Positions 2,280 to 51,359 of a stretch of DNA of 64,000 nt are shown piece by piece. The first letter of the stretch is position 1. Each line of letters begins with the position of its first letter. Source of the DNA: a virus; IMG/VR virus record IMGVR_UViG_3300033183_000491, positions 1-64,000 of that record; one strand, written 5' to 3'. The notes under the pieces were generated by a model. That model was not told the DNA's origin. It saw only the letters and a program-made list of their open reading frames with translations, and made no database searches. Position numbers and translations under genes: made by a program.

Positions 2280-3549
2280 GAATTACCTTTATAACTGGGA
2301 ATCTTAGTGAATAATCACCATTTTGATTTTGAGTTTCTTCAAAATACTGAACTGTAATAGTTTTATTTAAGATGTCGTTAGGATTTTTATAAAGATGTTT
2401 TCTTTGATCAATAGTAAATCCGCTTCCAACTCGAACTTCATTTCCTTTGTGTTCGATAGAGATGCCACTTAGCATTTCTTCTTCAACTTCAATGCCTTCT
2501 TTAATATATCTAATAGGACCAAAGAAAGCTTGCTTAACAATATACTCATCATCATAAAAAGTTTTTACTTTTAAGATATCATCAGATCTTTTACCTTTAT
2601 ATGTAGAATCCTTTCTAATCATTATTCCTTCCCATCCTTTTTCAGAAGCTTTAGTATTTAATTGTTCTAATTCGCTGAATGATGTTATGGGTGTTTGTTC
2701 AAGGAAGTCAAGATGCTTTAATTTTTTTCCTAAAAGAAGGTTTTGTAACGCTAGAATTCTTTGAGAGAATATACCTGTTTCACTATAACCTTTTGAAAAT
2801 ATTTTGTATGGGATGAAGTCAAAAATCTGAAATAGACCATTATGAATAGTATGGTCTTTTCTTCCTATTTCTTTCATTATGTCTTGAAAGTCTTCGTTTC
2901 CTTCTTCATCTACAATACACATTTCTCCGTCATAAACAATATTTTTTACGCCAAGATTTTCAATTTCTTTTTCTATTAGAGATAAAGTGTGAAATTGTTT
3001 TCCAGACCTAGCAAAAGATTTAGCCTTTCCTTTTTCATCTACGATGATTAAACATCTGACTCCATCAAGTTTTCTTGAGACGTACCAAACATCTTTTTCT
3101 AGATTAATTTTTTTCTTTGTTTTTTCGTCATATTTATTTGCCAAAGCAACATTGAAAGTCGGAATTAATCCAGGACAGGCTTTATTAATAAGTTTTGATG
3201 ATACTCTAATTTTTAAGTTTCTATCTAATATAAGATAGAATAATTCCTTATACTCAGGATTATTCAGAATGAACCCGTTTGATTCTTTTATTGCTTTATG
3301 ACCAGTAATTAATCTTTGGTTTAAAGAGTCAAGCAGATCAAAAATAGAAACAAATTTAGTATCTAAATTAGCTAAGTCTTTTCTTTTTTCTAAGTTTTTA
3401 GAAGTAATATTATATTGCATAAAAGTATTATAGGTATAGTATAAAACTTTTCTTACTTCATGACTTGATGATCTCATAATATCTACTTTATCATTTGAAG
3501 AAGTAGAACAATTCATTTTTAAAATAAAGTCGTTAATATCTTCGATCAC
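2257..3549 (-). CDS. ATP-dependent DNA ligase
   Basis: Adenylation motif I KxDG (VSRKLDGVRCLI), motif III YDGEM, motif IV EGIMIRK and motif V DDILKVK, in the correct order and spacing. Confidence 0.9.
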   Translation of the reverse strand: MIEDINDFILKMNCSTSSNDKVDIMRSSSHEVRKVLYYTYNTFMQYNITSKNLEKRKDLANLDTKFVSIFDLLDSLNQRLITGHKAIKESNGFILNNPEYKELFYLILDRNLKIRVSSKLINKACPGLIPTFNVALANKYDEKTKKKINLEKDVWYVSRKLDGVRCLIIVDEKGKAKSFARSGKQFHTLSLIEKEIENLGVKNIVYDGEMCIVDEEGNEDFQDIMKEIGRKDHTIHNGLFQIFDFIPYKIFSKGYSETGIFSQRILALQNLLLGKKLKHLDFLEQTPITSFSELEQLNTKASEKGWEGIMIRKDSTYKGKRSDDILKVKTFYDDEYIVKQAFFGPIRYIKEGIEVEEEMLSGISIEHKGNEVRVGSGFTIDQRKHLYKNPNDILNKTITVQYFEETQNQNGDYSLRFPVIKVIHGNERKF

Positions 3550-4176: not shown

Positions 4177-5457
4177 TTACATATTAATGACAATGTCTGA
4201 TCTGTCATTTTCAAAAATTAGTTTGCAATTTTTAGCAAGAACCCAACATCTTTTAAGCCCTCGTGATAAAGAAGGTTTTGGAGCACCACCATCAGTAAGA
4301 ATAATATATCCATCAAATTTTTTCTTGTTTTTAATAGCATGTTTAGTTACAGCCTCAAAACAAGTTCCTCCAGATAATTGTCTTTTAATATGAGGTCTTT
4401 TGTTTTTCTTCCACAAAAATCCATTTTTATCATCTACTATGGAATCAAACCTGTAAAGATAGAAGTCTGTATTTTTAGATAATACATCTAATTCAGAATA
4501 GAACTTTGATAATTCTTCATTGGACACAGAACCGCTTTCATCAATATAAACAGCAATCATTGGACGATAGATTTTTTTATAACCAGGATAAACTCCCATA
4601 TATTTTTTATTTAATTTTCTGATAGATGATTGTCTTTCATCTTTTTTTGTATATCCACAAAATCTTTTTAGAAGAGACTCCCATTTGATTTTACTAGATA
4701 GCATTTTATAAATTTCTTGTCTTGCTTCAGAAGATACTGACCCCCAATGTCTATTTTCTGCTTCTTTGACTGCCTCTTTAACTAATTCTTTAATTTTACC
4801 TTGAAATAATTCTTTCTCACCTTCAGACATTTCGTCCCATCCATCATGATCATCAAATCCGATCATAACACTGTTTTCCATACCTTCAAGGAATTCTTTG
4901 ATTTCTGGGTCTGAAATTAGTTTTTCAAAATAATATTCTGATGTTTTATTTCTTGGTAAACTTTCGATTAAGCTTGATATCTTATTAAAATTATCGATCT
5001 CATCTTGTTTCATGTTTTTGATTTGATCTTTTGTTAAAGATAATTTTTTCCCGGGTATTAATCCACCTTTTGGAAGTTCTCTTTCTGGGATTGTAGAATT
5101 AATAGCTAAGTCTGTTCCATAATTCCAGATAATGCGTGGATCTCTTCTTCTATCAGTTGTATGTCCAAAAACTAAATGTAAACATTCATGTTTTAAAAGA
5201 CCAATAATTTCTTGTGTTTTAAGACTCGCTAGAAACTCTCTATTCCAATAAAGAGTAATATCACCATCGACACATGTAACACCAGCTGTTGGAATATCAG
5301 TAGTTTCTTGTTTATTTAAAGATCTAAGAATTCTACTATAAAAAGGTTCAGTCCAGAGAAAGTCTACTAAATACTTTGTAATATCAAAATTATCAATCTC
5401 CTCTTGAGAAACATCACGTTTAGAATAAAGATTATTGTTATTATCAGACTTACTCAT
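4177..5457 (-). CDS. VWA-domain protein with N-terminal putative metallopeptidase domain (DUF2201-like)
   Basis: HExxH (LLKHECLHLVFGH) preceded by EPFYSRIL..TAGVTCVDG..LYWN. MIDAS DxSxS motif (VYIDESGSVS). Sits directly downstream of a MoxR-like ATPase, the typical pairing. Confidence 0.8.
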   Translation of the reverse strand: MSKSDNNNNLYSKRDVSQEEIDNFDITKYLVDFLWTEPFYSRILRSLNKQETTDIPTAGVTCVDGDITLYWNREFLASLKTQEIIGLLKHECLHLVFGHTTDRRRDPRIIWNYGTDLAINSTIPERELPKGGLIPGKKLSLTKDQIKNMKQDEIDNFNKISSLIESLPRNKTSEYYFEKLISDPEIKEFLEGMENSVMIGFDDHDGWDEMSEGEKELFQGKIKELVKEAVKEAENRHWGSVSSEARQEIYKMLSSKIKWESLLKRFCGYTKKDERQSSIRKLNKKYMGVYPGYKKIYRPMIAVYIDESGSVSNEELSKFYSELDVLSKNTDFYLYRFDSIVDDKNGFLWKKNKRPHIKRQLSGGTCFEAVTKHAIKNKKKFDGYIILTDGGAPKPSLSRGLKRCWVLAKNCKLIFENDRSDIVINM

Positions 5458-26979: not shown

Positions 26980-28611
26980 TTAATACATATCATCAGATAG
27001 TTGAACTAGCTGGACTCCTGCATGTGAATCATTTGTATTTAATACGATACATCCTACTGACAGGAGACTATTACATACACTTACTGCATTTGAAATTGCT
27101 GTTGCTGTTACTTTTTGTGGATCAATAATTCCTTTATCAATCATATCAACATAACTTTCAGTCCTAACGTCATAACCATAATTCCAGTCAGGATTATTCT
27201 TGATCATTTCAATAATATAATCAACAGGTTTATCACCATTATGCAAGATCTTTCTTAAAGGTGAAATACAAGCATCAGAAACGATTTTTGAAACTGTGCT
27301 ATCTAATAATGATTCTTCTTCATTATCTTCTAACAATTTAATCCCTGCACGCGCTAAAGCAATTCCACCTCCTGGTAAGAATCCACTTTCAATAGCAGCT
27401 TTTGTTGCATGAAGTGCATCATCAATTCTATCAACTAATTCAAGGAGTTCTGATTCTGTATGTGCTCCAATTGATAGAACAGCTACAACTCCCTTGTTAA
27501 TAATAAGACGTTGCTTATAGAATACTTCTTCTTCTTTTGTAATAGTTTTATCTTCTAACTTCTTTTCAATATCTTTAGAAATCTCGTCAGAATTTTCACA
27601 TGAAGCACATTCAACAAACAATGTCGTATCATGATTAGTTTCAATTTTCTTACAAGAACCTAGATCTGAAAGAACTGTGTTTGATATCTCTTTTTCATCT
27701 AAGTCATAGAAAACTTTTGTTCCTAATGCTTTTGATAGATCAGTTAAGATTTGATTTCTTTTTTCACCATAAAAAGGTGACCTAACTGCACAAACTTGCA
27801 ACATTCCTTTTGAAACATTTGCCAACAACGACTGGATTGTTTCTTGTTCATAATCATTTGCAATCAAGAACAAAGGTTTTCCAGTTTGATGGACTTTTTC
27901 AAGAATAGGAAGAATCTGTGTAAGAGAATTTAACTTACAAGACATAATCATCACAAGAGGATCATCCAAAATGGTTTTAGATTTCTCATTATCATTAATA
28001 AAATAAGGAGAAACATATCCTCGATCAATCTTAACACCTCTTACAAGTTTAAGTTCTGTACTAGTTGTTTTTGATTTTTCAACAGTTACCAGACCAGAAG
28101 TTCCAACTTCAAGCATCGCATTAGCAATTAAATCACCAATATATTCATCACCATTAGCTGAAATGGTTGCTACTTGTTTGATTTCTTCATTAGAAGAAAC
28201 CTTTTTTGATTTTTCACTTAGAATATCAATAACATCAGAGACCTTTTTATTAAGGTAACTTGTAATTTCAGATGGTGATCCGATTCCTGTCTGTAAAGCT
28301 TGTGATGCTCTAAAATATAGTTCTTTAGCAAGGACTGTTGATGTTGTACTACCATCTCCAGCAACTGTTGCTGTATTTTCACTCGCTTGTTTAAGTAATT
28401 TTGCTCCTAGATCTTCAACTCGGTTATTTAAAACAATACTTTTCGCTACAGTTGCTCCGTCTTTTGTTAAGTGAGGAGGCTCGTTGTTTTTCTCAATAAG
28501 AACTAGCTTTCCTCTAGGACCCATTGTAATTGATACAGCATCACAAAGTTTTTTGACTCCACTTTTAAGAAGTGATTGTGCTTCAGCATCAAAATAAATT
28601 AAATCAGACAT
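26980..28611 (-). CDS. groEL: chaperonin GroEL (Cpn60)
   Basis: ITMGPRGKLVLIEK, HLTKDGATVAKSI, AGDGSTTSTVLA and LPGGGIALARA. 543 aa. Confidence 0.9.
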   Translation of the reverse strand: MSDLIYFDAEAQSLLKSGVKKLCDAVSITMGPRGKLVLIEKNNEPPHLTKDGATVAKSIVLNNRVEDLGAKLLKQASENTATVAGDGSTTSTVLAKELYFRASQALQTGIGSPSEITSYLNKKVSDVIDILSEKSKKVSSNEEIKQVATISANGDEYIGDLIANAMLEVGTSGLVTVEKSKTTSTELKLVRGVKIDRGYVSPYFINDNEKSKTILDDPLVMIMSCKLNSLTQILPILEKVHQTGKPLFLIANDYEQETIQSLLANVSKGMLQVCAVRSPFYGEKRNQILTDLSKALGTKVFYDLDEKEISNTVLSDLGSCKKIETNHDTTLFVECASCENSDEISKDIEKKLEDKTITKEEEVFYKQRLIINKGVVAVLSIGAHTESELLELVDRIDDALHATKAAIESGFLPGGGIALARAGIKLLEDNEEESLLDSTVSKIVSDACISPLRKILHNGDKPVDYIIEMIKNNPDWNYGYDVRTESYVDMIDKGIIDPQKVTATAISNAVSVCNSLLSVGCIVLNTNDSHAGVQLVQLSDDMY

Positions 28612-46209: not shown

Positions 46210-46240
46210 TTAATCAAACTTGTTAAAATAATTAATCAAA
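46197..46240. repeat. perfect 22-bp tandem duplication at a convergent gene junction
   Basis: cttgttaaaataattaatcaaa x2. Copy 1 holds the last codons and stop of 45811-46209. Copy 2 holds the stop and last codons of dnaE-C. Confidence 0.85.
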
Positions 46241-47308
46241 AGCATTAATCTTTTTAAGCTTAGCAAGATTTGAAGACATACCCCACCCTACATCATTCTT
46301 CACGTCAGCAAGCCAAGTACTAAACTCAATATCATCATCAAGATTACCCCATACTCTTAACCAACCACTACGATTATCTGAATCGACACATTTCCAACGC
46401 ATAAATGCTTTACCATTTTTTGTTGTTTTTCTAATAACTTCAGTCACGGTAAACCATCCGATTCCACGATCACCTGGATTAATATCAAAAACACTACTAA
46501 TTTGCTTCTGTTTTAACTTTTTAAGAAGACTAGGTGGAAACAATAAGTCATCATTTGCGTCGTTACTGAGTTCAAAATAATTTTTAATTTTTTCTGATCT
46601 TTTCCAGTCAGACACAATTTTATATTTTGATAATAAATCTTCGACGATAGGTGTTAATTCCTCACCTTTTTTAAGGGCGCGTTTAATAGCTGTCTTAGTC
46701 ATTCCAAATCTTCCCTTTTTAAGTAATACATAGTTATCGAGAATTAAATCATGGAGTTGCTTATGATTATCAAGTTTATCGTCTTTAAATTCACTGAGAG
46801 ATTTAAATGCTTCCATCTTTGTTAGGGATGAAAAAGCTGTTTTATTCATCTTTGAATGCTTCCATTCTCCTTCTTCATTATAAAATAGATCTTCTAAATT
46901 ATTGTATGGTCTATTTGCAAATATTTCTTCAACAGCTTTATCACCTACTCCTTTAAGAGACGTTAAAGGTGGAACAAAAGCTTTCAAATCTTCAGAATAT
47001 TCCCATTCTGAACCAGAGTGATTTACATCAATTGCTGAAATGTCATATCCTAATGCTTTTATTTCAGCAATAACTTTTGACATACCTTTAGGGCTGCCAT
47101 TTTCAGATTGTAAAACTGTTGCTAACCATTCTGTTTCGTAGTGTGTGTGTAACCATGCAGCGTAATAAGAATCAATTGCATATGAAACAGCGTGAGAGTT
47201 AGATTGCAAAATACCATTACTTAAGTAATATTGATGATCATGATGTGAAACTTCTAGATCATACGTTTGTTGCTTACCAGTAAATTCAATTGATAAAATA
47301 CGAGGCAT
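46232..47308 (-). CDS. dnaE: DNA polymerase III alpha, C-terminal fragment preceded by a split-intein C-piece
   Basis: Int-C: MPRILSIEFTGKQQTYDLEVSHHDHQYYLSNGILQSN, followed by the +1 Ser. Extein: SHAVSYAIDSYYAAWLHTHY, completing the GFNK|SHA..Y motif. Confidence 0.85.
   Translation of the reverse strand: MPRILSIEFTGKQQTYDLEVSHHDHQYYLSNGILQSNSHAVSYAIDSYYAAWLHTHYETEWLATVLQSENGSPKGMSKVIAEIKALGYDISAIDVNHSGSEWEYSEDLKAFVPPLTSLKGVGDKAVEEIFANRPYNNLEDLFYNEEGEWKHSKMNKTAFSSLTKMEAFKSLSEFKDDKLDNHKQLHDLILDNYVLLKKGRFGMTKTAIKRALKKGEELTPIVEDLLSKYKIVSDWKRSEKIKNYFELSNDANDDLLFPPSLLKKLKQKQISSVFDINPGDRGIGWFTVTEVIRKTTKNGKAFMRWKCVDSDNRSGWLRVWGNLDDDIEFSTWLADVKNDVGWGMSSNLAKLKKINAFD
47198..47308 (-). other. split intein C-fragment (37 aa)
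   Basis: Block F/G pattern TYDLEV..HHDHQYYLSNGILQSN|S. Compare Npu DnaE Int-C, VYDIGVERDHNFALKNGFIASN|C. Confidence 0.8.
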
Positions 47309-47330
47309 TATAAACCTTTCTTTTTAATTT

Positions 47331-47359
47331 ATTGTACATAATTAATTTTTTGTTTACAC
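47331..47359 (-). promoter_or_regulatory. GTGTAAAT-class promoter candidate driving the Int-C/dnaE-C fragment
   Basis: Minus strand: TATGTGTAAACAAAAAATTAATTATGTACAATAAATT. The -35 overlaps the endonuclease stop codon. Confidence 0.55.
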
Positions 47360-48340
47360 ATAAGACTTTCCAAATAACCATAATCCTCTTGTTTTATTAA
47401 GAATAATACTTTCTATTTTGTCTAATGTTTCTTTATTAAACGTACCATTTTCTTTATATTCATATTCATCATGAGAAATCCTAATTACAGTCCAACCTTC
47501 TTCTATTAAGACTTCATTTAATTCTTTGTCTTTTTTTGTAACTTCACTAAGATTTCCTTTTTTCTTAAACACGTCTTTAAAATGATGTATACCGTCAAAT
47601 TCAATAACTATTTTATTTTCTAATGACATAATATCAATCTGTCTAGTGTTTGTCTTAGTTGATAAAAACTTTCCTGTTCTTTTAAGTGTTTGATTTCTTT
47701 TAAAAGTATTAGGAAAGTTTTTATCAACAATGTTAAATAAATCACCTTCAGGTTTAGACTGCCAAGATTTATGCATAACTGAGGTGCATTTTTTATAAAA
47801 TTCTCCCGGGTTATTCTTTCGCCATTCTGCAAGTCTATTTGATCTTTCTTTTTGGATATCTTTCCTACTTGAAGTTTTTTTAGCAGTCCTCGAAGATCTT
47901 TCTCTAAATTCTTGCGTTTTGTTTAAATTAGAAAGATTTTTTCTTCTTGATTCTCTAGCAAACTCTGAATTCATAATTCCTTTAGAAATAGATTTTCCTA
48001 ATTTTTCAATGTATTCTGAAAGATCCTCGCCTTTTTCTTTTTTTCTAGATATCCATGCTCCGTTTTTCTTTCCTGACATTGAATATTTATTTTTAGATTT
48101 TTCACACATCGCTAAGCCATATTTTAATTCATATTCTTCTTTACTTAAATTATGATTTTTAATATGTAATTTTATATTTTTTCTTACAAATCCACAAATT
48201 TGACATTTTACATAATCAATATTTTCTTTGTAATTTTCTAATATAAATTTACATTTTTCTTGATGGCTTTTTAATGTCGATTCTTTTATATAAGATTTTC
48301 CACACACACAATCGAAAGATCTTCTTGAATTATCAACCAT
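47354..48340 (-). CDS. free-standing homing-endonuclease-like protein (C2H2 Zn fingers + Vsr/DUF559-like nuclease)
   Basis: N-terminus CVCGKSYIKESTLKSHQEKC and CQICGF..HIKNH. C-terminus VIEFDGIHHF..KDKELNEVLIEEGWTVIRISHDEY. Overlaps the Int-N 3' end by 55 nt. Confidence 0.7.
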   Translation of the reverse strand: MVDNSRRSFDCVCGKSYIKESTLKSHQEKCKFILENYKENIDYVKCQICGFVRKNIKLHIKNHNLSKEEYELKYGLAMCEKSKNKYSMSGKKNGAWISRKKEKGEDLSEYIEKLGKSISKGIMNSEFARESRRKNLSNLNKTQEFRERSSRTAKKTSSRKDIQKERSNRLAEWRKNNPGEFYKKCTSVMHKSWQSKPEGDLFNIVDKNFPNTFKRNQTLKRTGKFLSTKTNTRQIDIMSLENKIVIEFDGIHHFKDVFKKKGNLSEVTKKDKELNEVLIEEGWTVIRISHDEYEYKENGTFNKETLDKIESIILNKTRGLWLFGKSYV

Positions 48341-51081
48341 AATGGAAGCATCCTTCCATCTTCAACTCTAAACTTGTGATGCATTGTACATTCAACACTT
48401 TTATCATTTTCCAGCGTAATCTTGAATGTTGGAACTTCTCCATGATCATGGTTTGCCAAAACCTGTGTAAATATATCTTCCTTTTTTTCTTCATCTCTTG
48501 ACTTAACGTAAACTCCAGGGACAACATCTTTAATCTCTTTCGTAGATAAATAATTTCCTTCGTGATCATAAGTATCTATTAAAGTATTAAATAGTAAACT
48601 TTTATTGAAGCCGTAAACAGCGAAACCTTCTATCTCTTCCCAAAGTTTTCTTGATATGTGTTCAGGAACATCATTAATTTCTTTTGCGCCTTTAATAAAC
48701 TTTTCTCTTGCAATTGTTTTTTCATCTTTTTTATTTCCCATAGTTGCAAGATTGTTTTTAACAAGTGTTTTTCTTAACTTGTCAGCTTCACCAGGGTCAA
48801 AACCAGATAGTTTTTGTGCAAGAAGCATAAATTGCTCTTGAAAAACAACATAAGAGAAAGTTGGTCCTAAAACTTCTTCAATAATTGGATGGTCATATTT
48901 AATCTGGTCAGCATTTTGTTTAGATTTAACATATTTCTTGTGAACGTTAGCTTTAAGAGGTCCTGGTCGATAAATTGCTGTAAGTGCAGCTAGTTCTTCA
49001 ATATTCTCTGGTTTTGCTTCTAGAGAGAAGTTTCTTGCGCCAGAATTTGTAAATTGAAATATTCCTACAAATCTTCCATCGTGATATACATGTTTCCAAA
49101 CCTCTTGATCATTTTGGTCGTGAAATCTACAGTTAAGATGTTTGTCAAAAAATTCTTTTGCATCTGAAAAAGTTGGGTTTTTATTGCCTTGTTTTTTCAA
49201 GATTTTATAGATACAATTTTCAATGTCTTTTAGTAATGATAACCCCAAGAAATCAAACTTAATAAATCCATTATCTTCTAGATTTCTAAAGTTTAATCCT
49301 TCTGACCAAGGAGTTTGTAATTCGCCACGAACACCGACAATAGGCATTGTTGTTTCTAAATGTTCTGGATCAGCTACAAGAACTCCTCCTGCGTGACGTC
49401 CAATTGCTCTATTTTGCATAAACAAAGAAGCAATATGCGTTTCTACTTCAGGATACCTTTCCATAAAGTCTTTATATTCAGACGAATATTTTTTACAATC
49501 TTCATGTTTAAGAACAAACACAGATTTTTCTTGATCATCACCTTTAGCCATTTTCATGACTTGTTCTTGAAGAGGTCCAGTAACTTTATTAACTTCATCA
49601 AAAGGAATATCGTAAAATTTTGAAATATCTTTAACTAGAGATTTAAGTTTAAGAGTATTAAAATTTGAAACAGGAATAACAGCATCATTACCATATAATT
49701 CTTTTGCTGCGTTAATTAATTCATCACGATCACCTGCATCCGTATCAATGTCAGGCCAACTAACTCTATGTCGCCCTAAAAATCTAGCCCAAAGAAGATC
49801 GTATGGCAAAGGATCAACTTGCGTAATACCTAACAAATAATTAACTAAAGATCCCGCACCTGAGCCTCTTCCTGGACCAAGTAATGTTTTCTTTTCAGCA
49901 CGTTTAAATATTTCATACATCGTAATAAAATAAGCTTCATGTCCAAGATATTTTATATCTGAAAGTTCTTCTTTAGCTCTTTCAACATATTCTTTATTCG
50001 TATGAAGATTATGTTCGATAAGAGATTCTTTAACTAAAGAAGACAAATGCTGAAATGGTGTTTTGTTTGGTACGTTAATTGTTGGAAGTTTAACTCCTGT
50101 ATCAATCCATGTATCTTCAAACTCATTCCAAACAATATCGTGAGTTCTATTAATAGCATCACTAACAAGTTGCTCATTACCTTTATAAAAATCATATAAT
50201 GGATATGAATCTAAAAATTCATCCCACATTTGTGATGCATTCTTTGGATATAATTCGCATTTAAGGTCTTCAAACTCAGGTAAAGTAAGATTGTCTCTTT
50301 TACCTAACCATCCAAGTTTTTTATATAGTTCTCTTGCTTGCCATTTTTCATTTGAAGGATAATGCGAATCTGCTGTACAGATAAGTGGAATACCTGTTAA
50401 CTTGTGATGTTCAATAAGATAGTCATTAACAGTATGCTGTTTTTCTAATTTATTAAATTGAAGTTCTAATTTAAAATTATTTTCGCCAACGCAAGAAACA
50501 AATCTATCTGTTAGGTTTAATAATTCTTTTTGAATTTGCTCGCGAGATTGATTATGTACTTCACCTCTTAGAATACGATTACTAAAAAGTCCGCCAAGAC
50601 ATGCGGTTGATATATGTAATCCTTCACCATGTTCTTGAAGCATTTGAAAATCAATACGAGGATATCTATAAAACCCGTATTTATAAGATTTTTTAACTAA
50701 AGTAAATAAATTGTGAAGACCTTTTTGGTTTCTTGCAGTTACGACAAGATGATAGCGTCGTTTCCATTCGTCTTTAAGAATATCTACGTTTTTTGTTTCG
50801 TCTTCGTCCTCGACAACTAAACCACCACTTTCATCATCTGCATCAATGTCAATTTTCTCTTTAGACTTCTTTTCAGCTGCAGCAGCTGTCTTAGCATCTT
50901 GAATAGCTTGTTTATGTGCGGCATAATCTTCTTTCCATTGCTGAAGAGATGGAACAAAATAAAATTCAACACCATAAATTTGTCTAAATTTTCTTCCAGA
51001 CTTTTGCATTCTAACTGCATGAGATCGTGCATGCGCAAGTCCATTACCATTACCATGATCAGTTAATGCCCATGCATCCAT
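48286..51081 (-). CDS. dnaE: DNA polymerase III alpha, N-terminal fragment ending in a split-intein N-piece (ORF as tracked; real start probably 51258)
   Basis: PHP ALTDHGNGNG, GRGSGAGSLVNYLLGITQVDPL, PDIDTD, GRHAGGVLV, FDFLGLSLL, YRPGP and AVYGFNK, then Int-N. Confidence 0.9.
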   Translation of the reverse strand: MDAWALTDHGNGNGLAHARSHAVRMQKSGRKFRQIYGVEFYFVPSLQQWKEDYAAHKQAIQDAKTAAAAEKKSKEKIDIDADDESGGLVVEDEDETKNVDILKDEWKRRYHLVVTARNQKGLHNLFTLVKKSYKYGFYRYPRIDFQMLQEHGEGLHISTACLGGLFSNRILRGEVHNQSREQIQKELLNLTDRFVSCVGENNFKLELQFNKLEKQHTVNDYLIEHHKLTGIPLICTADSHYPSNEKWQARELYKKLGWLGKRDNLTLPEFEDLKCELYPKNASQMWDEFLDSYPLYDFYKGNEQLVSDAINRTHDIVWNEFEDTWIDTGVKLPTINVPNKTPFQHLSSLVKESLIEHNLHTNKEYVERAKEELSDIKYLGHEAYFITMYEIFKRAEKKTLLGPGRGSGAGSLVNYLLGITQVDPLPYDLLWARFLGRHRVSWPDIDTDAGDRDELINAAKELYGNDAVIPVSNFNTLKLKSLVKDISKFYDIPFDEVNKVTGPLQEQVMKMAKGDDQEKSVFVLKHEDCKKYSSEYKDFMERYPEVETHIASLFMQNRAIGRHAGGVLVADPEHLETTMPIVGVRGELQTPWSEGLNFRNLEDNGFIKFDFLGLSLLKDIENCIYKILKKQGNKNPTFSDAKEFFDKHLNCRFHDQNDQEVWKHVYHDGRFVGIFQFTNSGARNFSLEAKPENIEELAALTAIYRPGPLKANVHKKYVKSKQNADQIKYDHPIIEEVLGPTFSYVVFQEQFMLLAQKLSGFDPGEADKLRKTLVKNNLATMGNKKDEKTIAREKFIKGAKEINDVPEHISRKLWEEIEGFAVYGFNKSLLFNTLIDTYDHEGNYLSTKEIKDVVPGVYVKSRDEEKKEDIFTQVLANHDHGEVPTFKITLENDKSVECTMHHKFRVEDGRMLPLWLIIQEDLSIVCVENLI
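48289..48600 (-). other. split intein N-fragment (104 aa, Ser1)
   Basis: SLLFNTLIDT (block A) and ECTMHHKFRVEDGRMLP (block B, TxxH). Compare Npu DnaE Int-N, KDHKFMTVDGQMLP. Confidence 0.8.
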
Positions 51082-51145
51082 ACCTTGAGATTCTGATATT
51101 ACAAAATCAATGTGGTCTGAAGGATATCCTAATCCATCAAATGTA

Positions 51146-51230
51146 GATACCTAGGAGAAGGTTGAATGGGCATGCAAACCAACGAATCTGTCGGGTCTAA
51201 GCATATCAAGTTCAACCTTCTCTAGGTACC
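51146..51230 (-). promoter_or_regulatory. 20-bp inverted repeat (mRNA stem-loop) enclosing the dnaE in-frame TAG
   Basis: Arms are 51146-51166 (gatacctaggagaaggttgaa) and 51211-51230 (ttcaaccttctctaggtacc). One bulge and one G-U; 44-nt loop. GC-rich relative to its surroundings. Confidence 0.8.
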
Positions 51231-51258
51231 TCCTTTCTGTTTTAAATGTATTATTCAT
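51151..51258 (-). CDS. dnaE: 5' segment of dnaE (35 codons) terminated by an in-frame TAG
   Basis: MNNTFKTERRYLEKVELDMLRPDRFVGLHAHSTFS* carries the first PHP motif (HxH). It is in the same frame as 48286-51081. SD AAGGT lies 6 nt upstream and a class promoter lies at 51293-51322. Confidence 0.7.
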   Translation of the reverse strand: MNNTFKTERRYLEKVELDMLRPDRFVGLHAHSTFS

Positions 51259-51292
51259 TATATACCTTTTTAATATGTTTAAATTGTGATTT

Positions 51293-51322
51293 ATTATATC
51301 AATGTAATGTTTATATTTACAC
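51293..51322 (-). promoter_or_regulatory. GTGTAAAT-class promoter candidate upstream of dnaE
   Basis: Minus strand: TATGTGTAAATATAAACATTACATTGATATAATAAATC. Confidence 0.6.
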
Positions 51323-51359
51323 ATAAAAGATATAATAAGGTTTAACTAATAAAAAATTT

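Follow-up and report, generated by a model that had tools for sequence, protein, structure and literature searches.

A stretch of 64,000 nucleotides of viral DNA (positions 1 to 64,000 of the IMG/VR record IMGVR_UViG_3300033183_000491, hereafter called the window) contains a gene for the DNA polymerase DnaE, the reading frame of which is broken by an in-frame TAG inside the first PHP motif. Comparison with related loci makes it probable that this stop is skipped by the ribosome in a hop of 9 nt. The same comparison shows the site as the right end of what appears to be a mobile endonuclease cassette, and our confidence in this origin is higher than in the hop itself. The window would hold an endonuclease-less copy of a previously undescribed bypass cassette, and the dnaE site is most likely a second, independent natural counterpart of the bypass in phage T4 gene 60.

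The original prediction, made from the letters of the window, had placed the start of dnaE at an ATG at 51258, followed by 35 codons and a TAG at 51151-51153 in frame with a 931-codon open reading frame (ORF), all of which was confirmed: on the minus strand the ATG at 51258-51256 opens ORF1 of 35 codons (MNNTFKTERRYLEKVELDMLRPDRFVGLHAHSTFS), and its stop (51153-51151) is in frame with the ORF of 931 codons that reaches 48286. The codons around the stop read CAT TCA ACC TTC TCC TAG GTA TCT ACA TTT GAT GGA. An alignment with phmmer to the Taq Pol III alpha subunit displays a 3-residue gap precisely at S-x-V, i.e. at the stop, and hence the PHP motif would be three residues too long under readthrough, as had been claimed. 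TAG is an ordinary stop elsewhere, terminating 5 of 68 long ORFs in the window, and a tRNA scan of the window found zero tRNA genes, so that a suppressor tRNA of the phage is not supported. When the product of the hop was searched against Pfam, the domains PHP (7.7e-25), DNA_pol3_alpha (8.8e-53) and DNA_pol3_finger (2.7e-36) were recovered.

As a DNA search of GenBank phages gave no match and the best DnaE of a cultured phage is only ~32% identical to that of the window, no annotated relative was usable. Protein-guided retrieval from IMG/VR, JGI metagenomes and GTDB genomes yielded ~170 loci containing this part of dnaE, which were then dereplicated; it was far more productive than a degenerate DNA pattern scan of IMG/VR, which added one extra locus only, and the scan of bacterial and archaeal genomes yielded three contigs of metagenome-assembled genomes (MAGs). 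The insert is absent from 92 distinct loci, all of which read H-x-H-S-x-F-S-x-F-D-G, e.g. HAHSTFSTFDG, with extra residues in none of them (0/92), and present in 25 distinct loci, in every one of which a Ser take-off codon stands directly before the stop. The stop is always the first triplet of the gap, and these loci carry one or two stops (TAG, TGA, TAA or tandem TAA TAA). Removal of the gap restores the canonical motif in every insert-bearing case, and HAHSTFSTFDG is also encoded by insert-less relatives, some of them ~95% identical over the rest of DnaE, which lends support to the earlier proposal that a 9-nt hop from UCC to UCU would yield exactly this motif. The N-terminus of the insert-less alleles is different and shorter. 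Near-identical pairs such as WIN/L010, L054/L036 and L152/L154 differ by the cassette alone. The window type of junction, class A (TCC or TCG, TAG, GTA or ATA, TCT), was found in at least 16 distinct sequences from many independent metagenome assemblies, and an assembly or sequencing error at the TAG, which had earlier been considered, is for this reason excluded.

Across the lineages the gaps measure 9, 10, 11, 12 and 39 nt and thus fall in all three reading frames, because of which neither readthrough nor a single type of frameshift serves all of them, while a hop of peptidyl-tRNA-Ser would serve every insert-bearing lineage. Take-off codons are UCC, UCG or UCU throughout, combined with landing codons as UCC>UCU, UCG>UCU, UCU>UCU, UCG>UCG and UCG>UCA, plus UCG>ACG and UCC>ACC; a UCN triplet is found at the end of each gap except in two lineages with ACS, where two of the three positions agree with the take-off codon. 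The intervening sequence differs widely outside the window type (TGAATGG, TAAAGTT, TGAAAA, TAATAA, TAAGTAA, TAATAATA, TGACCTAAA and one 36-nt version; Table 1). The 39-nt gap belongs to L152, where take-off would occur at the earlier Ser of the motif (HAHS) and the gap contains two in-frame stops and an 11-bp G+C-rich hairpin; its insert-less sister L154, 96% identical in protein, reads HAHSSFSNFDG, which equals the predicted product of L152, a locus known from a single short contig with a downstream frame that degrades after ~110 codons.

That the frame after the stop is translated as protein follows from its selection pattern and from the lack of a start codon near the landing site. In 14 distinct class A sequences, the 24 codons from the landing codon to Met-51081 have a ratio of non-synonymous to synonymous changes (pN/pS) of 0.085 (pS 0.63), which is similar to the following 50 codons (pN/pS 0.11, pS 0.70), and ORF1 has a pN/pS of 0.23 at a reduced synonymous divergence (pS 0.25), which points to constrained synonymous sites. 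The landing UCU is invariant in class A, although neighbouring codons vary. At the level of sequence, the comparison shows a gap that appears to be left untranslated, a translation that would go on in the landing frame, and a hairpin, stop and gap that seem to have been selected together.

The hairpin in the window comprises a stem of 21 bp instead of the 20 bp predicted, with the one bulged C (51155) and the one G-U pair that had been described, and spans the take-off codon, the stop, GUA and the landing codon. Its fold of -41.9 kcal/mol compares with -23.9 +/- 3.6 in 200 dinucleotide shuffles (z = -4.95), none of which was as low (0/200), in line with the expectation that it would be unlikely to arise by chance. 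The perfect internal Shine-Dalgarno-like (SD-like) run announced for this region was found as well (AAAGGAGGT, located at 51236-51228), and is invariant across 10 distinct class A sequences despite its rare AGG codons. The arms make use of the rarest codons of the genome, the G+C content of which is 28% (TCC supplies 2% of the Ser codons, ACC 4% for Thr, TTC 16% for Phe and AGG 8% for Arg), and within class A variable third codon positions occur in 11 of 14 loop codons vs 3 of 12 arm codons (Fisher p = 0.016). In the class A stem 16 of 21 pairs are invariant, and the changes are G-U or U-G wobbles plus one double change from C-G to U-A, found in L051, where it is compensatory and converts GUA to AUA. 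The wobble pairs favour an RNA structure on the sense strand.

A long hairpin folds in each insert-bearing lineage, with z from -3.0 to -7.4: -7.1 and -7.4 in class A variants, -5.4 in L009, -3.0 in L012, -4.7 in L119, -3.4 in L120, -3.9 in L122, -3.4 to -3.9 in L184, L188, L189, L199 and L200, and -4.4 in L152. No such hairpin is formed by the insert-less alleles that were folded (z = +0.4, +1.2 and +1.8), so that the original expectation of a stop and two arms kept together in homologues, with compensatory changes, was borne out. In the lineages outside class A the 3' arm terminates no more than ~2 nt from the take-off codon, and this applies even to L152 with its take-off three codons upstream, whereas the class A stem runs 10 bp further over stop, GUA and landing codon; the burial of stop and landing codon is a peculiarity of the window lineage and not a shared feature. 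Since the class A stem is nearly invariant and covariation within it is not significant against a shuffle control, lineages were compared instead: the codon before Phe varies between them (ACC, ACG, GGG, GGA, GGC) and the 5' arm co-varies (GGU, CGU, CCC, UCC, GCC), and own 5' and 3' arms, the 5' arms having been picked from predicted folds, pair best (10.25 vs 8.3 of 11 pairs; 1 of 20,000 permutations as high). In every lineage a purine-rich GGAG-like run precedes the 5' arm by 0-12 nt. Conservation of the ORF1 peptides is confined to the parts that encode the RNA arms.

Most insert-bearing dnaE genes have, immediately upstream, an ORF of 297-315 amino acids with N-terminal CxxC zinc-ribbon motifs and a PD-(D/E)XK-like C-terminus (...YTPDF...EIKGY...). 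It matches PHROG endonuclease families (2.7e-14 and 8.2e-13), and has no sequence relative in PDB and sub-threshold matches only in Pfam. In the unbiased retrieval by DnaE only, this putative endonuclease precedes 11 of 15 insert-bearing and none of 57 insert-less genes (Fisher p = 4.5e-10); over all loci the figures are 19/25 vs 0/92 (p = 5e-17), a count that is biased because some of these loci were retrieved with an endonuclease query. Downstream of nine more distant endonuclease relatives (L121, L123-L127, L129, L130 and L116, the last cut by a contig end; L128 and L132-L150 were left out), none was seen to adjoin dnaE or to have a bypass-like site.

Upstream of the endonuclease a relic of the native dnaE 5' end is retained, consisting of promoter, start codon and ...RFVGLHAHSTF, then immediately TAA; a single pair (L073/L046) was compared, and its relic carries the same allele as the insert-less sister. 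Where two loci agree by 90-100% downstream, their identity sets in precisely with the codon that follows the landing codon (ACA in the window); it amounts to ~60% in the shared RFVGLHAHSTFS segment and to background level further upstream. The insertion separates the Phe codon of the PHP motif from the Ser codon that follows, and the full cassette runs from the 5' end of native dnaE, broken off behind the Phe codon, through the endonuclease gene, a second copy of the promoter and a new N-terminus with the hairpin and a second copy of the displaced codons to the stop and spacer, the landing codon and the rest of dnaE. In the compact cassettes of L184, L188, L189 and L199 (~1900-2010) a second promoter is lacking and the endonuclease stop nearly abuts the start of ORF1 (e.g. 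...GGTAAATAATG...); ORF1 would there be translated from the endonuclease transcript, unlike in the window lineage.

In the window neither an endonuclease gene nor a relic was found upstream of dnaE. Its promoter is a hybrid, the left half matching the native promoter of the insert-less L014 and the right half being identical to the cassette promoter of L004, and on the simplest reading relic and endonuclease would have been deleted by recombination between the two promoter copies. The endonuclease is likewise absent from L005, L015 and L009, and only remnants are retained in L047/L013, L200 and L152 (an upstream stub in the latter). In the T4 gene 60 family, too, the endonuclease is often lost and the bypass kept, and it was the bypass insert that blocked MobA there, which sequence polymorphisms alone did not (10.1101/2022.08.31.505936). 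A seamless join of the copied displaced codons would rebuild the endonuclease target, and a spacer would be needed for this reason; by analogy, the spacer in dnaE probably stops the duplicated coding sequence from re-creating the target of the putative endonuclease.

A promoter of its own at 51293-51322 had also been ascribed to dnaE. The sigma-70 scan did not call it, and what stands of the claim is the element GTGTAAAT at 51322-51315, which is over-represented in the window (10 copies vs 3.5 expected, 9 of 10 on the minus strand) and probably part of a phage promoter class missed by that scan. Compared with the ORF list, its copies are located mostly shortly upstream of minus-strand ORF starts, and it is also seen 5' of dnaE in relatives.

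The skipping of the 9-nt coding gap UAG GUA UCU, of which TAG is the first triplet, could proceed as follows. Termination would be slow while UCC (51156-51154) occupies the P site and UAG the A site, the peptidyl-tRNA-Ser would un-pair, the mRNA would move by 9 nt, and the tRNA would re-pair with UCU (51147-51145), after which decoding would restart at ACA and give one DnaE with HAHSTFSTFDG and the predicted junction peptides ...HAHSTFSTFDGLGYPSDH... and ...GLHAHSTFSTFDGLGYPSDH.... At take-off ~11 last nucleotides of the 3' arm would be inside the ribosome, with the 5' arm and the inner hairpin already outside, and the inner hairpin has likely re-formed there by that time. Zipping of the basal helix behind the ribosome may then draw the mRNA onward over a distance close to the gap length; a 5' stem-loop and mRNA pairing on the exit side were proposed as forward driver in T4 gene 60 (10.1101/2022.08.31.505936; 10.1101/2024.12.09.627546). 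The GGAG-like run may serve at landing as an anchor for the tail of 16S rRNA, after the helix has carried the run to the exit site, or alternatively may delay the following ribosome, which would allow the helix to form. More tentatively, the site could be regarded as a minimal portable bypass module without special nascent peptide and A-site hairpin, in which the stop stalls, the basal helix closes and the mRNA is drawn on, the geometry of the helix setting the length of the hop and anticodon re-pairing fine-tuning the landing, which would explain landing on ACG and ACC. If true, the natural series of 9, 10, 11, 12 and 39 nt would make the disputed model of exit-side pairing as driver testable and provide a designable element for programmed hops.

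Several points weigh against the hop as set out here. The roles of hairpin and GGAG-like run are deduced from position and analogy, and in class A the extended stem engages the landing codon as well, an arrangement of no obvious help to landing. Landing codons ACG in L012 (~3010-3033) and ACC in L120 (~3440-3462) match the take-off codons UCG and UCC at two positions only, the first being mismatched, and no UCN triplet is available there in the right register. To these are added the near-invariance of the class A stem with its single double change, the choice of 5' arms from predicted folds, the retrieval bias in the count over all loci, the missing endonuclease copy in the window, and the circumstance that class A alone could formally be served by readthrough of UAG, its gap being in frame.

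Among the alternatives, the one that survives best, although we regard it as unlikely, accepts the hop and denies the hairpin its driving role, assigning to it mRNA protection, a limitation of ORF1 translation, ribosome spacing or, at the DNA level, immunity to the endonuclease. Synthetic stop-hops function at a low level without stimulators (PMC5009743), the extended class A stem hides the landing codon, and the SD-like run could act on trailing ribosomes only. Nonetheless, in the lineages other than class A the 3' limit of the helix shifts together with the take-off codon, even in L152, the G-U pairs favour RNA over DNA, and an essential polymerase requires more than background hopping.

Readthrough, i.e. 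decoding of UAG by a near-cognate or suppressor tRNA to give a DnaE with three extra residues in the PHP motif (S-X-V-S), is improbable. Stable structures around a stop can stimulate readthrough in other systems, and such a structure surrounds the window stop, with the class A gap in frame. However, programmed readthrough cannot repair the homologous cassettes of sister lineages, which are out of phase (10- and 11-nt gaps) or possess tandem TAA TAA or, in the 39-nt gap, two in-frame stops; the window is free of tRNA genes and uses TAG as a normal stop; extra residues at this metal-binding motif occur in none of the 92 insert-less relatives; and readthrough leaves the invariance of the landing UCU amid varying codons without a reason.

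Still less probable is frameshifting at the stop, which would have to combine +1 shifts (10-nt gaps), -1 or +2 shifts (11 nt) and readthrough (9 and 12 nt), each adding 3-4 residues. At stop codons +1 shifts exist (prfB), which gives this explanation a precedent. The same option could initially not be excluded by the authors of the study on Streptomyces phage phiHau3 (PMC10732093). Three mechanisms would yet be required for one conserved architecture, a slippery sequence is absent, and P-site UCC or UCG, as in UCC-U of the window, is unable to re-pair at +1. Furthermore, the GGAG-like run is situated 65-80 nt upstream of the site (~75 in the window) and not 3 nt as in prfB, and the added residues (KVT, EWS, xVS, xPKS) would vary by lineage inside an otherwise invariant motif.

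The least credible of these explanations is a broken gene, that is a pseudogene, a truncated protein starting from Met-51081 or a protein in two pieces, with the TAG merely ending ORF1. Gene callers would annotate it so, and an ATG exists at 51081, but the 24 codons in front of it are under the strong purifying selection reported above and encode the conserved DGLGYPxDHI of the PHP domain, no start codon is near the landing codon, a truncated product would lose the HxH and D metal ligands, and the arrangement recurs in numerous diverged lineages and assemblies. Also rejected, as no feature supports them, were RNA editing or transcriptional slippage (the class A site has no homopolymer), a tiny intron and excision at the DNA level. 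A ribosomal hop over the stop hence remains the favoured reading of the dnaE site.

Table 1. Features of the dnaE site in the window and take-off/landing junctions of the other insert-bearing lineages. Roles in the hop are predicted.
Feature	Position (strand)	Description
dnaE promoter region and ribosome-binding site	51259..51345 (-)	contains GTGTAAAT 51322-51315, TATAAT-like box 51298-51293, AAAGG 51269-51265
ORF1	51154..51258 (-)	cassette-supplied N-terminal coding sequence; leader MNNTFKTERRYLEKVELDMLRPD and second copy of RFVGLHAHSTFS
Internal SD-like run AAAGGAGGU	51228..51236 (-)	overlaps base of 5' arm
5' arm of stem	51211..51231 (-)	AGGUACCUAGAGAAGGUUGAA
Inner hairpin in stem loop	51170..51207 (-)	encodes DMLRPDRFVGLHA
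3' arm of stem	51145..51166 (-)	UUCAACCUUCU-C-CUAGGUAUCU; holds take-off codon, stop, GUA and landing codon
Take-off codon UCC (Ser35)	51154..51156 (-)	rarest Ser codon in window
Untranslated gap (predicted)	51148..51153 (-)	UAG 51153-51151 and GUA 51150-51148
Landing codon UCU	51145..51147 (-)	decoding would resume at ACA 51144-51142
Main dnaE frame after the hop	48286..51147 (-)	PHP, polymerase and finger domains, then N-terminal half of split intein
L009		TCC TGA ATGG TCT; gap 10 nt
L012		TCG TAA AGTT ACG; gap 10 nt
L119		TCT TGA AAA TCT; gap 9 nt
L120		TCC TAA GTA ACC; gap 9 nt
L184		TCC TAA TAA TCT; gap 9 nt, tandem stops
L188		TCC TAA GTAA TCT; gap 10 nt
L189		TCC TGA ATAA TCT; gap 10 nt
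L200		TCT TGA AAAA TCT; gap 10 nt
L199		TCG TAA TAATA TCA; gap 11 nt
L122		TCG TGA CCT AAA TCG; gap 12 nt
L152 (MAG contig RFPR01000237.1)	1082-1170	take-off UCG, UAA, 39-nt gap, landing UCA

Further observations concern other parts of dnaE and its surroundings. The window dnaE (46232-51147, minus strand) is also 'fractured': its N part ends with ...YGFNK|SLLFNT... in an apparent N-intein half, a free-standing ORF with Zn-finger and DUF559/Vsr-like parts at 48340-47354 overlaps the end of this N part by 55 nt, and the C part (47308-46232) opens with a C-intein half (...GILQSN|SHAVSYA). Pfam support for these parts is weak (DUF559 4.8e-5; Intein_splicing 1.9e-4, below threshold). A study on marine metagenomes describes an arrangement of split intein and Vsr-like endonuclease, which is matched by the window gene; in the passages searched, it makes no mention of a site at the 5' end of these 'fractured' DnaE genes (PMC2677866). 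Additional intein-like insertions of ~1.4 kb were seen in the dnaE of L010, L013 and L047 (after ...ISTACL) and of L011 (after ...FLGRHR), the latter containing an ORF with Zn-finger and PD-(D/E)XK-like parts, and in this group of phages dnaE looks like a hotspot of several mobile elements. Elsewhere in the window a GroEL-like chaperonin gene (26980-28611, minus strand; phrog_5725, 2.6e-131) and an HNH-endonuclease-like ORF (4177-5457, minus strand; phrog_1314, 2.5e-50) were recognized; among 10 large window ORFs scanned, 5 lack a match in PHROG, and there is no close cultured phage.

Programmed bypassing has so far comprised T4 gene 60 with its homologues, i.e. one gene, the byps of yeast mitochondria and one candidate in a Streptomyces phage. 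The dnaE cassettes would form an independent family with a different essential gene, a different endonuclease and a simple, conserved RNA architecture, and their natural variants in gap length, stop, take-off and landing codons represent a mutational series for the start, drive and end of the hop. They would also imply that the coupling of a homing endonuclease with a bypass spacer evolved more than once. Such dnaE genes are probably annotated as truncated genes or pseudogenes, and consequently metagenomes may conceal comparable sites in further phage genes.

A full-text literature search brought up no paper on bypassing in dnaE and none describing this cassette. With cassettes of free-standing homing endonuclease genes it shares an endonuclease confined to interrupted alleles, a sharp homology boundary and the recipient sequence left as a relic. 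The byps in mitochondria of Magnusiomyces capitatus (Lang 2014; reviewed in PMC5009743) are likewise short mobile inserts in essential genes that are skipped by ribosomes between matched take-off and landing codons. They differ, however, in being GC-cluster-like elements of 27-55 nt that require an unused codon in the A site as well as a translation system specialised in mitochondria, with neither endonuclease nor long 5' hairpin.

In the synthetic 'stop-hops' of E. coli (Weiss 1987; O'Connor 1989; reviewed in PMC5009743) peptidyl-tRNA quits the codon preceding a stop and pairs anew, a few bases downstream, with a matched codon, as suggested for dnaE. These were constructs hopping at a low level and without stimulators, 9 nt giving one residue, whereas the dnaE site is natural, part of an essential gene and equipped with conserved RNA signals, 12 nt giving one Ser. 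A natural in-frame stop-hop was not known at the time of a 2016 review, and shorter counterparts of bypassing had long been presumed to exist (PMC5009743).

The closest system in gap length and in the arrangement of stem-loop and SD is the candidate bypass in the terminase g6/7/8 of Streptomyces phage phiHau3 (Smith 2013; PMC10732093), for which a 10-nt bypass, a 5' stem-loop with a flanking SD and a junction peptide detected by mass spectrometry were reported (PMC10732093). In both systems an essential phage gene is broken up by short blocks (10 nt in phiHau3, 7 nt in a prophage), the flanks of which are adjacent in block-less relatives, a slow A-site codon opens the block, and a 5' stem-loop is accompanied by an SD-like run, here AAAGGAGGU (51236-51228) at the base of the 5' arm. 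In phiHau3 the rare sense codon UUA occupies the A site, where UAA can substitute for it in E. coli, and a regulatory role tied to the host cell cycle was proposed; in dnaE the A-site codon is always a stop. Moreover, phiHau3 has no endonuclease cassette and three genes are known, as compared with many lineages and a mobile element in the case of dnaE.

In its organization the dnaE site most resembles T4 gene 60 with the mobA homing-endonuclease cassette (Huang 1988; Bonocora 2011; Manning & Atkins 10.1101/2022.08.31.505936), and L152 is the variant most like it. In both, a free-standing endonuclease gene accompanies a coding gap that lies downstream of it in an essential replication gene of the phage, the cassette brings along a copy of the coding segment that it displaces and has its end at the landing codon, and a stop directly follows a take-off codon that matches the landing codon (UCC UAG GUA UCU in the window, with the same logic in 18 of 18 distinct junction types). 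A predicted 5' stem-loop is present in every dnaE lineage, its 3' arm ending at the take-off codon or, in class A, reaching over the gap. The interrupted gene is different, the PHP motif of dnaE here and the large subunit of topoisomerase II, split at its Toprim domain, in T4, as are the endonuclease (zinc-ribbon and PD-(D/E)XK-like in the relatives vs HNH MobA), the hopping tRNA (Ser vs Gly or Asp) and the gap length (9-12 nt, or 39 nt in L152, vs 50 or 20). The 6 nt of the window gap cannot form an A-site take-off hairpin, a strong one being found only in the gap of L152; the 5' hairpin of dnaE is much larger and abuts the take-off codon, and the SD-like run is placed 5' of the hairpin instead of 6 nt before the landing site. 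Also, dnaE is not split into two functional proteins, only ~21 codons being orphaned, and the cassettes have no sequence homology. The dnaE system would work like that of T4 gene 60 and mobA, but stands outside that family.

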